Positions 40,212 to 47,378 of a stretch of 64,000 nt of DNA are shown here, piece after piece; within the stretch, counting starts at the first letter, position 1; every line of letters starts with the position of its first letter. The notes under the pieces are model-generated. The model made no database searches, had not been told where the DNA came from, and worked only from the letters and a program-made list of their open reading frames with translations. Source of the DNA: Candidatus Bathyarchaeia archaeon. Lineage in GTDB: Archaea > Thermoproteota > Bathyarchaeia > Bathyarchaeales > Bathycorpusculaceae. The stretch is taken from positions 544,001-608,000 of the forward strand of contig JBEKOM010000001.1 of assembly GCA_049521795.1 (NCBI GenBank). The letters run 5' to 3'. The position numbers and the translations under genes were made by a program.

Positions 40212-40442
40212 CTACTTGGTTGTTGTTGTTGCCTTTGGTGTTTCCTTCTTCATCAGGGCCCATGCGGCTATTATGATGCCAACCAAGCCGATGACTCCGG
40301 CTAAACCGTAAAAGTACCAACCATTGCCTGAACCGTAGGCTATCCCGAAGTCGTAAGCACCGGAATAGCGGACCGCGCCGAGTATTAGAGCAATGATGAT
40401 CAGTATAGCACCGAGGCCCACACCTATAGTCTTGCTATTCAA
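40212..40442 (-). CDS. Small two-TM membrane protein
   Basis: Two hydrophobic helices; GAGGT SD and TTTAAATA box upstream. Confidence 0.7.
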   Translation of the reverse strand: MNSKTIGVGLGAILIIIALILGAVRYSGAYDFGIAYGSGNGWYFYGLAGVIGLVGIIIAAWALMKKETPKATTTTK

Positions 40443-40847
40443 TTTTTTAACCTCTTGCCTAGGCGTTTAGGAGTAAGTGCTATTTAAAATACTCGCAGCT
40501 GGGTTCTGGTACCTCTTCGTCTGTTTTATCTCCTTGTTACTTTTCGTCTGTTACATTCAAAACGGGCCCATATGAGCTTTCTAGACTTTTTTGTCATGGT
40601 TTTTTGTAGCGCGCACCCCGACAAGGTTTTAAATTAGCAATTACAGAGAACATTATAGAAGAATGAGGGGAAGGGCAGGATTTTTTCTCCTTTCTCCCTT
40701 TCTTGCCCTTTCCCCTCTCTCTCTTCTCCTTCTGGTGCAGTCTTGGCACTTAGTATCGCGTACGCTATTACGGCTTATGAAAGATAGTTCTAGAAGAATC
40801 ATCTATTCACTCATGGCTGATTGGCGATTTTTCCTCTGTGAAGTTGT

Positions 40848-41048
40848 TTGGGACATCGCAAAAGCAAATGGGTTGTCGCAAGAAAAGAAGGCAAGCATCC
40901 GATTCGCATTGTTGCTGGAACACATTTTCGCTTGAAAAGAACCGCTATCAAGAAAGCTGGACAACTCAACCGAGCCTTCAGGCCTAGAAAAGATATTCGC
41001 TTCGTCGTTAGGCGTGAGGGTTGGAACAGAAAACGCTGGTATTCCTGA
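40848..41048 (+). CDS. Small Arg/Lys-rich hypothetical protein (passenger)
   Basis: 66-aa basic ORF inside the element. Confidence 0.45.
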   Translation: MGHRKSKWVVARKEGKHPIRIVAGTHFRLKRTAIKKAGQLNRAFRPRKDIRFVVRREGWNRKRWYS

Positions 41049-41059
41049 CAACAGTTGTC

Positions 41060-41317
41060 TTAGGCTTTGCGTTTCCGAGGCAGCGCAAGGTAGAAGCCGA
41101 TCAACATTACTGCGAAAGGATACATCCCAGTTAGAAAGGTGTTTACCGTTGAGAAAGGAAGAAAAAGAGCAAAGGGCTGGAAAATTAATGCGACGACATA
41201 CCTCAAGTTATCCATACCTTGCGCGCTAACCAAATAGCTGACAGAGTTTATCGCAATTCCTGCGCAGAACCCATAGATCACTAAGAATATGCCTATACTA
41301 CGTCGGTTTAGTTTCAT
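41060..41317 (-). CDS. Small membrane protein (passenger)
   Basis: 85 aa from the internal ATG; 2-3 TM helices and basic tail. Confidence 0.6.
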   Translation of the reverse strand: MKLNRRSIGIFLVIYGFCAGIAINSVSYLVSAQGMDNLRYVVALIFQPFALFLPFSTVNTFLTGMYPFAVMLIGFYLALPRKRKA

Positions 41318-41363
41318 TAGCTTCAGAGGAAAAATGCTAAATTCAACCTCTGAGTATGTTTGA

Positions 41364-42047
41364 ATGGAAGAGGGAGAGGGGAGAAGCGTCTTGAAAGGCA
41401 TTATAGTGGTAATTGTCGTATACTTGCTTGTCGTGATTTGTCTCTGTAGCCCAATAGCGAATGCTGATTCGACAACGATTCTTGAGCGAAAACAAAACTT
41501 CATCGTTTACCGCGACACCTTGACTGATGGAACGGGATTGATTGGTTCGGACTTCGGCTATGTTATGCATTCTGGTGAAACTCTTTTTGTTTCATGGAAA
41601 ACAACTGAAACTATCTTCCCTGACCCAATCGTATGGCTATTAACGCAACAACAAAAAGACCATTGGAACTTTGCTGCTGGCGGTGCAATACTCTCTCCTT
41701 ATGGGTATCTTTTGAAAAAAAGTGGACATCAGGCGAGTTTCACTTTTACAGCTCAACAAGATGCAACCTATTATGTCGTTATTCATAACATTGCTTGGGG
41801 AGCATTAGATATTAGTGGACCAACATTAAACGTGGAAGCCTACGAGGCTGATCTGACCATCCCAAGTGCTCCATCTAATCCAACTCAGCCAACGAACCCA
41901 TCAGTCGGTGGAACTTGGAGTCCGATAACGAATCTTGATCTGTTTAATCATTGGGAAAGCTTGGTCTTTCTGATGATAGCATTGATAACATTGGTCGTAT
42001 GTGTTCAGAAATCTCATAATTTTTTAAACGCTAGCCATCATAGATAA
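41364..42047 (+). CDS. Secreted protein with Pro/Thr linker and VGG-TM C-terminal anchor (passenger)
   Basis: Signal peptide, beta-rich domain, PSAPSNPTQPTNPS-VGG-x-x-x-P, TM helix. Confidence 0.75.
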   Translation: MEEGEGRSVLKGIIVVIVVYLLVVICLCSPIANADSTTILERKQNFIVYRDTLTDGTGLIGSDFGYVMHSGETLFVSWKTTETIFPDPIVWLLTQQQKDHWNFAAGGAILSPYGYLLKKSGHQASFTFTAQQDATYYVVIHNIAWGALDISGPTLNVEAYEADLTIPSAPSNPTQPTNPSVGGTWSPITNLDLFNHWESLVFLMIALITLVVCVQKSHNFLNASHHR

Positions 42048-42184
42048 GTTTACAGTATCTAGAAAAAGAACCATAAGTCAAGGCATGGCAATCGTAGAAA
42101 TAAAAACAAAAATAGAATATCTAGAAAAGGGCTTTAACGAACTCAAAACAAATGCCACTTGGAAGAAAAGCTAGCATCTCCCTT

Positions 42185-43297
42185 CTATTTTTTGCTTGCG
42201 TTTTGAATCAATGTCAACCACTTGTTTTTTCCTTCTACCGTGATACCGCAAGCTTCCGCTGGTGTTCTTCCTTCTAATGCTTCGTGTGGTCTGATGTAGT
42301 TGTGGAAAATCTGATAACCTGAGAGAATCGGCGTTTCTTTGGTTTTGAGTCCTCGCATGGTTTTTTCTCTGTCTCTGATTTCTCCGTTGAACCTTTCCAT
42401 CTTGTTGTTATTTCTATCTCCTCTAAAGGCGATGTGTCTAACGTGTTGGGTTCGTGGGCCCTTCCTTGTCCAGAAGGCTTTTTTGTAAGCATCATGATAA
42501 ATTAGCAAACCATCGGTTATCAATGTGGCAGGTTTCTTTCCCATTAATTGTTCTCCTAGTTCGAAGAGTTTTCTTGCGTCATGCTTGTACTTTGTCTCTG
42601 CAACTTCCTGAGCAATCCAGAAACGAGTCTCATCGTCCAACAAAGCGAAAACATACTTCATGTTGCCTTTGACTTTAACGTATAATTCGTCGGCTCTCCA
42701 TGTGTCGCTTACGTTAGGCTTGAAATTCTCAACATAATCCTTCATCAATTTAACGTACTTCTTGATCCACATGAAAACGGTTTTATGAGTAACTTCCACG
42801 CCTAACAATTTTAGCGATTTCTGAGTATTCCTTAAAGACTCTCCGCTGAAATATAGTTGCATGGCAGAGGTGATAGCTTGAGGATTATGCTTCATTCTTT
42901 CAAAGCCAATGTTAATGGTAAAGTAGTGGTGACAATCTCGGCAATGGAACTTCTGAATAGCTCCTGTCTTATTCCTTCTAATTCCATCTTTCTTGAGGTT
43001 GCTTGAACCGCAATATTGGCAATCCTGAACATTTACCTCTTGAATAACTCGGCTAGTTTGGACTTCTTTTCTGATTTGGCTTGAAAATTCAACTGCAAAA
43101 ATATGTTTGCACTTTTCATGGCGATAAACATGATCTGCACATTCACAGTACCATTCTCCAGAGACTTTGAAAACCTTGTATTCTCCGTTGTTTGACTGTG
43201 ATTTTACAACGTATGTCTCTGCATCGATTCTATTGATCTGGTTTGGCATTTTTGCGATGTCTAAGCCTTTTTGTTCACGTTGGTTCAATGTTGCCAT
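42185..43297 (-). CDS. IS6-family DDE transposase with N-terminal SWIM and Zn-ribbon domains
   Basis: CECAD...CKH (SWIM), CQYC...CRDC, WRADELY, LITDG, NNKMER, HNYIRPH. Confidence 0.93.
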   Translation of the reverse strand: MATLNQREQKGLDIAKMPNQINRIDAETYVVKSQSNNGEYKVFKVSGEWYCECADHVYRHEKCKHIFAVEFSSQIRKEVQTSRVIQEVNVQDCQYCGSSNLKKDGIRRNKTGAIQKFHCRDCHHYFTINIGFERMKHNPQAITSAMQLYFSGESLRNTQKSLKLLGVEVTHKTVFMWIKKYVKLMKDYVENFKPNVSDTWRADELYVKVKGNMKYVFALLDDETRFWIAQEVAETKYKHDARKLFELGEQLMGKKPATLITDGLLIYHDAYKKAFWTRKGPRTQHVRHIAFRGDRNNNKMERFNGEIRDREKTMRGLKTKETPILSGYQIFHNYIRPHEALEGRTPAEACGITVEGKNKWLTLIQNASKK

Positions 43298-43420
43298 GTT
43301 ACTACACCACTATCTAGTAGTATAGTATTAAACAGCTATTTAAGGCTTACTACGAACGCACTACCACAACATAATAAGCTAAAACTATTTATACGACCTA
43401 GTAGTATTAACTATCGGTGA

Positions 43421-43591
43421 TTGAAAACGCCAACAAATGAAAAAGAACAAATCGTAACCTCTCTGAAGGTTAGCCCTCAGTTATGGAAGCAAGCCAAAAT
43501 AGCAGCTCTTGAATGCGACATAACTCTGGGCGAACTCATAGACCAAGCTGTGCGAGATTGGATACAGAAACAGGAGAAAGGCAAAAAATGA
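43421..43591 (+). CDS. 56-aa ribbon-helix-helix regulator divergent from the transposase
   Basis: Translated by hand: MKTPTNEKEQIVTSLKVSPQLWKQAKIAALECDITLGELIDQAVRDWI...; GGTGA upstream; ATGA overlap with next gene. Confidence 0.8.
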   Translation: MKTPTNEKEQIVTSLKVSPQLWKQAKIAALECDITLGELIDQAVRDWIQKQEKGKK

Positions 43592-44082
43592 ATGAAGCAA
43601 CAGAAAAATACCTTCAAAACGTACTTGACAAGGGCAAGCAAAAAATAAACAAACAATTTATTCCGAGAATAAACCGCAATTACCATCAACAAACATTGGC
43701 TACGTTTAGAATGGACAGAGCATTAAAACACGATTTGGCATCTGCAAAGGCATTTCACGCTTCAAAAGGATTCATGTTCTACCAGTTTGCTGATATTTAC
43801 ACGATACTCGGTAACCTAGTTCAAAATCTGATGGAGAATGCAATACAGAATATTGCGGATTTGGATCAATTAAAGGAGAGCATTAAAGAAATCCGCGATA
43901 CGCTTGGAATGGATGTGTCAAAGGTGAAGGCTGACATCGAAGGCATTAAAGCAACCGTTAACTCAAAAGAAATTGCTATACTTGCCAAATTTGCGGAAGA
44001 CTTTAACAAACAGGTAGAAGAAACAAAGAGGAAGCTAGAAGAATACGCCAAGAAAATGAGGGAAAACGACCTTGCCTCATGA
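43588..44082 (+). CDS. Coiled-coil hypothetical protein (passenger)
   Basis: ATG overlapping the RHH stop; heptad-rich C-terminal half. Confidence 0.75.
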   Translation: MNEATEKYLQNVLDKGKQKINKQFIPRINRNYHQQTLATFRMDRALKHDLASAKAFHASKGFMFYQFADIYTILGNLVQNLMENAIQNIADLDQLKESIKEIRDTLGMDVSKVKADIEGIKATVNSKEIAILAKFAEDFNKQVEETKRKLEEYAKKMRENDLAS

Positions 44083-44410
44083 TACCGTCACAGAAATCAT
44101 CGATACTCTTACAGAATTAAAACGTATGCATCAGCTTAACTTAGAGCTTCTTGAACAGTTAAGCGTATCCTGTAGTTGGCTTATGGAACATAATGTTCCA
44201 ATACCGAATGCAGAGACCATTTGCTCTTTGCTCAAGAAGGCAACGATACTGTTGAGCGAAATCCAAGCTGACCAGCCAAAGATTCTTCAATATAAAAAGC
44301 TAGCAGACGAAAAGAAACAGCCTTTCAAAACAGACGACAAGGAAACAGAACCCGCAGCTGGAGGCGCAACTGCGCGCTTGAGAGAAAGCGGTTTGACCTT
44401 TAATTCTTGA
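44072..44410 (+). CDS. Helical hypothetical protein reading through the right inverted repeat
   Basis: Overlaps upstream stop; codons LADEKKQPFKTDDKETEP lie on the IR and the stop is in target DNA. Confidence 0.65.
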   Translation: MPHDTVTEIIDTLTELKRMHQLNLELLEQLSVSCSWLMEHNVPIPNAETICSLLKKATILLSEIQADQPKILQYKKLADEKKQPFKTDDKETEPAAGGATARLRESGLTFNS

Positions 44411-44669
44411 TTCGCTGTTAGTGCGCGCTTTGAAGTCCATTTTCTTGGAAAAAACTCGCAAAACAGTTACGCCACATGTGGACAACCTGACAATGTTAAC
44501 GTGAGTGCGCGGCATGTCCTTTGTGAAGTGCAATGAATGTGCGAATAAGCTGTCAAGTTCGTTGCTCGATTGCTGCAGGTCAGATGCTTATCCGACAAAG
44601 CTTTAAGGCTTATATCCTATGATTCGGATTATTTTCAAAGAAGTGTTTGTGGGGGAATAATGGAAAGCT

Positions 44670-47378
44670 ATGTTGAAACGTTTTGCAGCGTTTTTCATGG
44701 TATTGATAGTTGTCGCAAGCGTTAGCAATGTTGCCTTCAGAGTCTCTGCTGTTCAGAGTTCAAGCTTGCCTCAATCCACGGGGCATAATGGCCTTGTCTC
44801 AGTTAATGGTGATCCAAATCAGTTGGTTATAGGCGTAAATCAGACAACTCCATGGGCCTATGACGAATTGACAAGCCTTGTTCTGAGAACAGGAGGAAAA
44901 AGCGTGAGCAACGTTTCAGTTGAAGGGCAGGCTATCGCGATTGTTGTTGACGTGCCTTCAGACAATTTGTCAATTCTTTCGAATGAGGTCCAAAGGACAG
45001 GGCTGGCCAGATACGTGGAACCCAACATGCTGTTCGAGGTACAGTTCGTTCCGAACGACCCGCTCTACGGCAATCAGTGGGCTCTGCCCAAGATTCAGGC
45101 TGACTGGGCATGGAACACGACCACAGGAAACTCGTCCGTGCTTGTGGCCATCATAGATACTGGGATTGATTATAACCATCCTGACCTGAAGAACAACTAC
45201 GTTGCCCTTGGCAAAAACTGGGTCAACAATAGCAGTGATCCGATCGACGATAATGGACATGGAACACATGTTGCTGGAATAATTGGAGCGGTCTTGAACA
45301 ATGGGGTGGGCATTGCAGGGATTGCTCAGGTCAGCATCATGGCTGAGAAAGCCTTGAACGCCACTGGCTGGGGTCTTGAAACCGACTTGGCGAATGCCAT
45401 AATCGACGCAGTGCAAAAAGGTGCGCGCATTCTGAGCAACAGCTGGGGCGGTGGTTCTGACAGTTCGCTCATTCACGATGCTGTTCGCTACGCGTACCAG
45501 CATGGGGTCCTAGTGCTTGCTGCGGCAGGAAACTCGAATTCTGATGCGAGGTTTTACCCCGCGGCCTACGACGAAGTTGTCGCGGTTGCCGCCACAAACG
45601 CGTTCGACACAAAGGCGGCGTTCTCAAACTGGGGAAGCTGGATTGCGGTTTCAGCACCTGGCGTCAACATTTTTTCAACGATGCCCACATACCATGTGAC
45701 ACTGAACGATTATCCCTACTCTGAGTCTATGAACTATGATTATCTGAGTGGCACATCAATGGCTTGTCCGCAGGCCGCAGGTGTGGCTGCTCTCATCTGG
45801 AGCAGTTTTCCCAACGCGACGAGAGACTGGGTAAGAGGTCAATTGAGCTTCACCTCTGACGATTTGGGAGACCCTGGTTTCGACGTGATCTATGGCGCTG
45901 GAAGAGTCAACGCAAGGAAAGCCGTTGAACAGCAACCGTTACAGCACGATCTGTTCCTGTACAGATATGATATGCCAACTTTTGTTCAACCTGGAGACAT
46001 GGTTCCGATCAGCCTGACTGTTCTTAATTTTGGATCAAGCAGCGAAAGCAACGTTAACGTAAGCATTCTTGTCGATGGGACCGTTGTTGATTCAACGATC
46101 CTTCAACCTTTGGCAAGTGACTCGTTCGCCACGCCGGTTGTGCTCTTTTGGAATCCTCTTGAAAATGGGACCCACAATGTGACCATGTACGTTCAGCCCG
46201 TCACTGGTGAAACCATTGTCAGCGACAACGTAATATCAGTCCAGGTCAACGTGCAATTCTTGGTTAGCTTAAGTCCGTCACGAGGCCCCGTCGGAACAGG
46301 CGTAACAGTCACGGGTGTCCAGTTTACTCCCAGCAGCGTAGTGGAAATCACGTTTAACGACATGTTTCTGGGCTATGCGGCCACAGATTCTGTTGGCGAT
46401 TTCACGTTCACGTTCAACGTGCCATTTTCGACGGCTGAAACATGGATCGTTAAGGCTTTTGACGCTAACGTCTTTGGTGAAACCAACTTCACCGTCGTCG
46501 ATGTCACTCCGCTGAACGTTCAAGTAGATGTTGGCGCGCTTCAATTCAGAGGCGAAGTTGTCACGTTTCTGATATACGCAGCTTTCAACGGGTCCGCAGC
46601 CAACGCCACGGTTTCAAGCGCCTTGCTTTACAAGCCTGACGGTTCCAACCAAACATTGACGGTTCAACCCGTTGCAGAAGGGCTTTCTCAGGCGTCTTAC
46701 ACGTTGCCCGCCGATGCTCAGACAGGCTCCTACGCGTTGGTCATCACTGCGGGCTACTCATCAAGCCTGGTGCAATCTTTGGGAACGGCGTTCAAATCAT
46801 TCTTGGTGAGCCCAACCCTCTCAGGGTGGAACGCCGTGCTCACCACCGTCAACCAAACTGTTGGAACGATACGGACAGATCTGGGCTTAGTGAACGTGCG
46901 CCTTGACGCGCTTGACCTGACTCTAGCGCGCATTGAGGGAGACGTTGTGACGTTAAACTCCTCTTTGGGAACGATTCAGTCTGACTTGGAGACGATAGGA
47001 TTCAAAGTCACAGCGATAAACGGGACGATAGCAACCATGGAAACTGTTCTGGGCACAGTTAACGGGACAGTGACTTCAATCAGGGATGAGAAGGCAACCA
47101 TCATAATTCAAGGAATCGGACAGGTGGAGAGTGACGTTTCCAGTTTGAAGGTTGAGCAAGGAAACTGGACGATACCGCAGTACGCCATCCTAGCCTCAAC
47201 GCTGGTCGCAGCGGCATGCGCGTTGCTGGCGATTGCGATGTTCAGGCGCAGGAGAGCAGCTGCACCCATACACGAAGAACCCAAAAGCGAAGAACCCAAA
47301 AGTCCCGAGGGCCAGCCCGAAAGTTCTGGACAGGATTTGACGACGGGGCAAGAGAGCGGGCAAGAGGGCGTCACCTGA
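44670..47378 (+). CDS. Membrane-anchored S8 subtilase with CARDB/Ig-like domains and repetitive stalk
   Basis: Signal peptide; IIDTG, HGTH, AAAGN, SGTSMA; C-terminal TM followed by RRRR. Confidence 0.95.
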   Translation: MLKRFAAFFMVLIVVASVSNVAFRVSAVQSSSLPQSTGHNGLVSVNGDPNQLVIGVNQTTPWAYDELTSLVLRTGGKSVSNVSVEGQAIAIVVDVPSDNLSILSNEVQRTGLARYVEPNMLFEVQFVPNDPLYGNQWALPKIQADWAWNTTTGNSSVLVAIIDTGIDYNHPDLKNNYVALGKNWVNNSSDPIDDNGHGTHVAGIIGAVLNNGVGIAGIAQVSIMAEKALNATGWGLETDLANAIIDAVQKGARILSNSWGGGSDSSLIHDAVRYAYQHGVLVLAAAGNSNSDARFYPAAYDEVVAVAATNAFDTKAAFSNWGSWIAVSAPGVNIFSTMPTYHVTLNDYPYSESMNYDYLSGTSMACPQAAGVAALIWSSFPNATRDWVRGQLSFTSDDLGDPGFDVIYGAGRVNARKAVEQQPLQHDLFLYRYDMPTFVQPGDMVPISLTVLNFGSSSESNVNVSILVDGTVVDSTILQPLASDSFATPVVLFWNPLENGTHNVTMYVQPVTGETIVSDNVISVQVNVQFLVSLSPSRGPVGTGVTVTGVQFTPSSVVEITFNDMFLGYAATDSVGDFTFTFNVPFSTAETWIVKAFDANVFGETNFTVVDVTPLNVQVDVGALQFRGEVVTFLIYAAFNGSAANATVSSALLYKPDGSNQTLTVQPVAEGLSQASYTLPADAQTGSYALVITAGYSSSLVQSLGTAFKSFLVSPTLSGWNAVLTTVNQTVGTIRTDLGLVNVRLDALDLTLARIEGDVVTLNSSLGTIQSDLETIGFKVTAINGTIATMETVLGTVNGTVTSIRDEKATIIIQGIGQVESDVSSLKVEQGNWTIPQYAILASTLVAAACALLAIAMFRRRRAAAPIHEEPKSEEPKSPEGQPESSGQDLTTGQESGQEGVT

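Follow-up and report, generated by a model that had tools for sequence, protein, structure and literature searches.

An IS6-related, passenger-carrying transposon with two-box ends in a Bathyarchaeia archaeon, and family arrays that point to insertion beside resident elements

Most described members of the IS6 group of insertion sequences (IS) are small. In the part of the 2021 IS6 review available to us, the majority measure 700-890 bp, seven measure 1230-1460 bp and three 1710-1760 bp, all of these longer forms being clostridial with zinc-finger extensions, and the same part names one passenger-carrying member, ISDsp3, and none longer than 1.76 kb (PMC7986276). For archaea, the accessible portion of the 2019 thaumarchaeal survey by Krupovic et al. 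assigns one or two genes to each IS and reports that passenger-carrying DNA transposons were not detected (PMC6563490). Here we analysed a 64-kb stretch of DNA from a Bathyarchaeia peat archaeon, hereafter the window, in which a 3851-bp insertion occupies positions 40502-44352. This insertion is an IS6-related passenger-carrying transposon and belongs to a large family for which we found no description in print. We consider it very probable that it is an autonomous DNA transposon of a Bathyarchaeia genome with an IS6-type DDE transposase, ends that each hold two sequence boxes, a ribbon-helix-helix (RHH) regulator, accessory genes and cargo, and that members of its family tend to insert beside the tips of resident elements. 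An earlier reading of the window's letters, hereafter the original prediction, had raised the possibility of an undescribed class, which agrees with our finding no description of the architecture in the searchable full-text literature (ISfinder was not covered).

Like canonical IS6/IS26 elements (IS26, IS257, IS6100 and IS240), the insertion has an 8-bp duplication, tips of the GG/G7/cTGT type and no resolvase, and its DDE core and helix-turn-helix (HTH) domain find their best match in IS6 models. However, canonical members are 0.7-0.9 kb long and have a single gene and repeats of 14-20 bp, whereas the element described here measures 3.85 kb, holds about eight genes and ends in 52-bp two-box structures, and its siblings span 2.0-7.2 kb. 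Its transposase is 370 aa long and has two additional zinc modules at the N-terminus, and its identity to annotated IS6 transposases does not exceed 32%. The long clostridial zinc-finger elements (clades h and i in PMC7986276, VII and VIII in PMC6807381) likewise have an N-terminal zinc-finger extension before the IS6 core, but they are bacterial, 1.2-1.8 kb long and encode only a transposase; the sections of these two papers that we had at hand report no SWIM-like finger, accessory operon, cargo or two-box ends for them. ISDsp3, from Dehalococcoides sp. BAV1, is also an IS6-type element with a passenger gene, yet as described in the available part of the review it is bacterial and single-copy and carries one hypothetical passenger (PMC7986276). 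Tn3-family and Tn7-like unit transposons resemble the element in having one end pair, a transposase with a regulator, variable and often defence-related cargo, and ends with multiple sites for protein binding, although their transposases are unrelated to the one found here. Members of the Tn3 family have a transposase of about 1000 aa, 38-bp repeats, a 5-bp duplication and a resolvase, and Tn7 has TnsABCDE and a 5-bp duplication. In the insertion we found a 370-aa IS6-type transposase and an 8-bp duplication, and Pfam and NCBIfam scans of its proteins gave no match to a resolvase or to TnsABCDE.

The boundaries of the element are formed by the following features:

40494..40501, no strand: left copy of the target-site duplication, CGCAGCTG; single copy at the empty sites in two congeners (G001 and G002)
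40502..40553, + strand: left end, distal to the transposase; GGTTCTG tip followed by two boxes of about 20 nt (40506-40525 and 40533-40552) with the core TCGTCTG, 27 nt apart
44301..44352, - strand: right end, on the side of the accessory operon; GGTTCTG tip and two boxes
44353..44360, no strand: right copy of the target-site duplication, CGCAGCTG, a perfect 8/8 match with the left copy

The original prediction had proposed a 3.85-kb element with a perfect 8-bp duplication and had named the empty site as something to look for. Both were found. A search with the window's own flanks against 40 relatives located the site without the insertion in two congeneric genomes, G001 and G002, where the flanks are 83-91% identical and abut around a single 8-mer (CGTAACTG and CGCAACTG, respectively). 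Since the flanks abut there with one target copy, 40502-44352 was inserted as a single block and duplicated 8 bp of the target. With one end pair that encloses a transposase and additional genes, and with the whole block absent from both congeners, the insertion has the make-up of a unit transposon or passenger-carrying IS. In addition, both occupied junctions were bridged with 0 differences by contigs of three further peat-metagenome runs from three other studies. The proposal that the insertion is recent thus holds relative to the split from the congeners, but goes no further, because the same site is occupied in those three runs and the empty allele was not seen there.

The duplication copies directly abut both ends, each of which starts with GGTTCTG. 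A repeat search returned two pairs of inverted arms, 40501-40527/44327-44353 (27 nt, 85%) and 40535-40553/44301-44319 (19 nt, 89%), together with a direct repeat inside the left end (40506-40525/40533-40552, 20 nt, 80%, spacing 27). Left and right ends are identical at 39/52 positions, or at 41/56 over a longer stretch, so that the repeat search and a script together reproduced the predicted inverted repeats and the two TCGTCTG boxes 27 nt apart. The ends begin GGTTCTGG and GGTTCTGT, and both carry the GG start, the G at position 7 and the cTGT motif that make up the IS6 tip consensus in the parts seen of PMC7986276 and PMC6807381. A regular expression for two-box ends, run on both strands of the 2.44-Mb genome, gave only 4 matches, namely both ends of this element, one end of an element on contig 2 (C2) and a lone end at C9:695; the partner end of the C2 element was recovered only with a looser pattern. 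A chance origin of the end structure is excluded.

The central gene of the element is the transposase:

42185-43297, - strand: transposase, 370 aa, intact; SWIM-like CxC..CxH finger, zinc ribbon, HTH and IS6-type DDE core

Its open reading frame (ORF) lies 1683 bp and 1055 bp from the two ends, in line with the central position (about 1.7 kb and 1.05 kb) first estimated. Pfam assigned DDE_Tnp_IS240 (PF13610) to aa 198-336 with 60.2 bits against a cut-off of 27 (E 3e-16), and the best NCBIfam match was the IS6 model NF033587, which aligned aa 132-334 with model positions 1-200 of 202 (E 6e-34); the next-best NCBIfam model, IS1, scored 55.8 bits, and the same scan placed an IS1/IS1595-type zinc domain at aa 93-127. 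The catalytic residues D203, D262 and E301 are invariant in 35/35 full-length relatives that are 41-78% identical, as are the cysteines and histidines of the SWIM-like finger (C51, C53, C63 and H65) and of the zinc ribbon (C93, C96, C119 and C122). Precomputed Pfam annotation assigns a SWIM label to some of the close homologues. By tblastn, annotated IS6 transposases on plasmids are 23-32% identical, and long clostridial plasmid copies align from aa 54-74 to aa 360 with 27-28% identity. A sequence search of the PDB with the transposase gave 0 matches, while public protein clusters held 5386 relatives at E<=1e-20, for which 'transposase-like protein' was the most specific name given. Judged by its sequence, the catalytic and HTH core of the transposase is closest to the IS6 type and the enzyme is intact. 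The PF13610 match, the NF033587 match just under its cut-off, the tips, the 8-bp duplication and the adjoining RHH gene support the proposed IS6-derived unit transposon with its own regulator and variable cargo.

Summed over four peat runs, the depth of metagenome contigs at 42284-42439 was 9- to 25-fold above that of the rest of the element. This peak falls on the part of the gene for the C-terminal region of the enzyme (about aa 287-338, with the invariant E301), and suggests that many related elements are present in those peat communities.

We then turned to the family. The genome of the archaeon itself (G000) contains three further transposases of the same type as well as fragments, and no short classical IS6 element. 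A scan of species-representative genomes yielded 76 loci, mostly in Bathyarchaeia but also in Nitrosopumilus, Nitrosotalea, Nitrosotenuis, Nitrososphaerales, Methanoperedens and Methanocellaceae. Within the class, the transposase was present in 44/301 sampled genomes and in 27/152 high-quality genomes. A script that required GGTTCTG-like tips, 52-nt ends identical at >=30/52 positions and flanking 8-mers identical at >=7/8 positions identified an end pair with a duplication in 32/76 loci (35 pairs, 1983-6076 bp long), and in none of the same loci when they were reversed or shuffled; the duplications were 8/8 in all end pairs but one, which was 7/8. Five more siblings with perfect duplications were found in the genus: E2 (3195 bp), E3 (3222 bp), E4 (4147 bp), E5 (7161 bp) and E6 (1591 bp). 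The transposases of E2 and E3 are frameshifted, and E6 (G000 C2:127958-129548; L016 5959-7549) has two-box ends identical at 43/52 positions and the duplication CTTTTCGG but no transposase, carrying instead ORFs of 237 aa and 71 aa that lack a family match. The 2129-bp sibling L048 consists of the core genes alone. The search for further copies had a divided outcome: the exact element has no second copy in the genome, but its diverged siblings establish the class. Decayed sibling remains were also seen at G000 C11:78833-79818 and C39:1722-1853, where C-terminal transposase fragments are 80-85% identical to the transposase of this element; a gene of the basic-protein family described below lies beside the C11 fragment.

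The two boxes are common to the family. The distal 8-mer of an end, allowing <=1 mismatch, recurred 25-45 nt inward in the same end at 45/75 ends, in 34 of them at +25 to +27, compared with 1.8% after shuffling and 10.8% when 8-mers were taken from other elements. Two-box ends are shared across the family, and inside a given element the two boxes co-vary. The two ends of the element are also asymmetric, with TGTTTC boxes on the operon side and TGTTAC boxes on the other, an arrangement common to the sibling L048.

Family members were also arranged in tandem. A search for the exact pattern CAGAACC-N(0-60)-GGTTCTG in 3.44 Mb (the genome plus 82 loci) gave 11 occurrences, 10 of which have an 8-nt spacer. 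A count that allowed one mismatch per tip was too noisy, with 27 junctions for spacer 8 and roughly 10 for other lengths, and was superseded by the exact tips. Nine arrays place different family members in tandem, exactly 8 bp apart, with a spacer that is in each case identical to the outer duplication:

G000 C1:88305, 92460 and 99629 (within C1:88304-99636, outside the window): array of three elements, spacer CTTTATCA
L078: array with four copies of AAATATCA
L079, L070 and L115: arrays with three copies of the spacer 8-mer each
L046 and L059: arrays in which the spacer equals the outer duplication

Among five further clusters of transposases, L129 and L130 form such arrays too, and the tip pattern detected no 8-bp junction in L126-L128. 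Because the nine array 8-mers are mutually different, the aim would be the resident tip and not a sequence, and the arrays, as read from their junctions, suggest that insertion is directed to the tip of an element already in place. IS26 is known to target a resident IS26 copy, which the insertion beside a family member recalls. The conservative IS26 reaction leaves no 8-bp spacer or duplication, whereas the arrays described here keep both. The exact spacing provides a simple, testable handle on target choice by a DDE transposase and may link the family mechanistically to the clinically important IS26.

To the right of the transposase, the element contains a control region and three genes:

43298..43420, no strand: control region between the divergent genes, 123 bp; repeated motif beside two TATA-like boxes
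43421..43591, + strand: RHH protein, 56 aa, divergent from the transposase; weak Pfam RHH matches
43588..44082, + strand: coiled-coil protein, 164 aa; accessory gene of the subgroup
44072..44410, + strand: helical-hairpin protein, 112 aa; reads through the right end, with its stop codon 58 nt outside the element

Homologues of the RHH gene adjoin the transposase in the opposite direction in 28/76 loci and in E2. The control region holds a motif twice, at 43309-43331 and 43393-43410 (CTAGTAGTAT..TAGTATTAA), with a TATA-like box beside each copy; we infer that this motif is a candidate RHH operator and that the RHH protein is a putative repressor of both divergent promoters. Profile searches covering all ORFs of the 82 loci and the genome found seven members of the coiled-coil family, all at the same position; database matches of the coiled-coil protein are weak and of coiled-coil type only. 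The helical family gave 19 profile matches, comprising 16 ORFs of 90-154 aa at the end-side position (including the element's own gene) and 3 short remnants. In the helical protein, the acidic C-terminal tail (..DE....D[ED].TEP in the family, ..DE..DD..TEP here) is the translation of both boxes and the tip, and the end-side ORF stops outside its element in 8/8 members of ORF clusters 1 and 7. An AlphaFold model of this protein consists of two helices and a disordered tail, with a predicted local distance difference test (pLDDT) score of 72. The right-hand genes recur at conserved positions and therefore form an accessory module and are not passengers. Accordingly, the view that passenger genes lie on both sides of the transposase was retained for the variable genes on the left, but not for the RHH, coiled-coil and helical genes. 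By sequence comparison, the core of the family is the transposase with the adjoining divergent RHH gene, to which the coiled-coil and helical genes are added in this subgroup; the proteins they encode are conserved accessory factors with a possible role in target choice or regulation.

Two side observations belong here. The lone two-box end at C9:695-750 has no partner that we could find, and an 85-aa ORF that crosses this end and reads outward resembles the helical-protein family in the end-encoded tail alone. In the window, transcription of the accessory operon leaves the element across the right end, toward a gene on the same strand for a 902-aa subtilisin-like protease (44670-47378, 310 nt downstream), and the insertion could thereby alter expression of the protease gene.

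Cargo was variable between siblings with the same core, as the original prediction had envisaged for comparisons among copies, and often included defence genes of the restriction-modification, PIN, MazF, Fic and GmrSD kinds, which on siblings occupy places corresponding to the left-hand cargo of this element. Of 164 ORFs of >=60 aa, 146 were scanned. The cargo of the siblings included type I M and S subunits, an N6/N4 methylase fused to an Mrr-type nuclease, type IIG-like enzymes, GmrSD with HNH, PIN, MazF, Fic, SocA/Panacea, ParB-DUF488, DprA with a phosphoribosyltransferase, and proteasome-like subunits. The last of these were seen on two siblings (L076 4783-5616 and L107 1353-2099), with a small conserved ORF (cluster 2) alongside. 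The element and its siblings indicate that passenger-carrying transposons are common in Bathyarchaeia and Nitrososphaerota, and that the family would move restriction-modification, toxin-antitoxin and other defence genes.

For the mechanism, we propose that the SWIM-like finger, zinc ribbon and HTH of the transposase would bind both boxes at each end, and that a multi-subunit complex would assemble on the four boxes. The target would be cut with an 8-bp stagger and the element ends joined to the cuts. By analogy with IS26, a cointegrate route resolved by host recombination is probable because no resolvase is present; since the family membership of archaeal and long forms is disputed in the portion seen of PMC6807381, the IS26 mechanism serves here as an analogy only. 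The RHH protein would repress both divergent promoters through the motif repeated at each, and new copies would capture the 8 bp beside a resident member's tip as their preferred target. A broader picture is offered tentatively, as one that falls a little short of probable: that of an undescribed class of archaeal IS6-derived cargo transposons in which a three-module transposase would read two boxes per end and target the 8 bp beside any resident tip, arrays of different elements would grow at one spot and become landing pads that extend themselves and collect defence genes, both in Bathyarchaeia and in ammonia-oxidising archaea, and fusion of neighbours would capture cargo.

Several results weigh against reading the insertion as an autonomous IS6-type transposon of this kind. 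The NF033587 score of 117.5 bits lies below the curated cut-off of 125, and Harmer and Hall, in the part of their paper that we could draw on, question the placement of archaeal and long 'IS6' elements in the IS6/IS26 family (PMC6807381). An ungapped comparison of boxes as 19-mers was barely above controls (mean 10.9 vs 9.7-9.9); because one box is 1 nt longer than the other, it is the 8-mer test and not this one that carries the two-box claim. The exact element is single-copy, with no second copy in its own genome, and none of four metagenome runs (X1-X4) yielded an empty-allele contig joining 40501 to 44353, although contigs drop rare variants. No clean empty site was found for E6, whose flanks are rearranged in congeners. 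For the accessory proteins, an ESM Atlas search with the coiled-coil protein was uninformative (best score 0.78), and Foldseek of the helical-protein model against the PDB gave no match at E<=0.001. Among the left-hand genes detailed below, the 85-aa ORF lacks a Pfam or NCBIfam match as well as any homologue in the genome and in the 82 loci, and the 227-aa protein has only 3 homologues beyond its own cluster among 5.8 billion proteins, at 44-51% identity.

Three other explanations were weighed against this background. The insertion could have arisen in two steps as a compound, in which a core of about 2.1 kb (accessory genes and transposase, as in L048) and an adjacent cargo element lost their inner ends and now move together. 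Such a history would fit the 2129-bp L048, which holds core genes only, the occurrence of transposase-less elements with the same ends (E6, 1591 bp) and the arrays, which set different elements 8 bp apart and in which deletion of an inner junction would fuse two. However, there is no internal end-like motif between 40553 and 44301, G001 and G002, which have one target copy, lack all 3851 bp as a single block, and the TGTTTC/TGTTAC difference between the ends is also present in L048. We regard this history as very improbable, and it would describe at most the origin of the element, not its present state. Even less probable, to the point of being nearly negligible, is an integrated plasmid or virus remnant that merely contains an IS6-like gene: Pfam and NCBIfam scans found no integrase, replication, capsid or conjugation genes, the inverted-repeat ends and the 8-bp duplication lie exactly at the insertion boundaries, and the same end structure bounds 32/76 related loci, even if most genes are without known function and related transposases occur across several archaeal phyla.

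The insertion might also be a fixed, inactive relic, intact-looking but immobile, with some of its genes taken over by the host. Its single-copy state would fit this idea, as would the occupation of the same site in three other runs in which the empty allele was not seen, and the frameshifts in two sibling transposases of the genus (E2 and E3). Set against these observations, the transposase ORF is whole with all invariant residues present, the duplication is perfect and both boxes are kept at both ends, and we consider a relic unlikely. This explanation bears on activity and not on identity.

On the left side of the transposase, the element carries its cargo and one conserved non-coding stretch:

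40619..40809, + strand: conserved non-coding stretch; TTTAAAT box, purine/pyrimidine hairpin and a 35-nt core (40773-40809) ending TCTATTC
40848..41048, + strand: basic protein, 66 aa; passenger recurring on sibling elements; no Pfam or NCBIfam match
41060..41317, - strand: predicted membrane protein, 85 aa; hydrophobic, element-specific cargo, weakly supported as a gene
41364..42047, + strand: 227-aa protein with hydrophobic N- and C-terminal segments; element-specific cargo; no Pfam or NCBIfam match

The 227-aa protein, which has no homologue on sibling elements, is probably a surface protein, as suggested by its terminal hydrophobic segments; one of its three homologues carries PKD domains. 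A further ORF at 40663-40935 (90 aa), for which no homologue was found, was taken as non-coding. Taken whole, the conserved non-coding stretch of about 190 nt has counterparts of 76-77% identity in G001 and G010, and its 35-nt core recurs at 88-94% identity in four genomes. An Rfam scan of 40300-44500 returned only sub-threshold microRNA-like matches, on the hairpin at 40657-40726. We rejected the stretch as part of the transposition machinery because its core occurs at five places without an element end within 600 nt upstream; it may serve as promoter and leader for the gene of the basic protein. On or beside siblings, this protein has 8 homologues of 66-89 aa, and it is 47% identical to the copy on E4. 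Its family of very basic proteins of 55-89 aa is seen at G000 C1:89374-89583, C1:97944-98111 and C11:78833-79042 and in L042, L059, L061 and L063. On several elements the gene lies downstream of the transposase, and the family, which has the motif ..VVR.KG...R.V.G..[YF]R.K..A.KEA......VRKEGW.RKRW.S, may bind nucleic acid.

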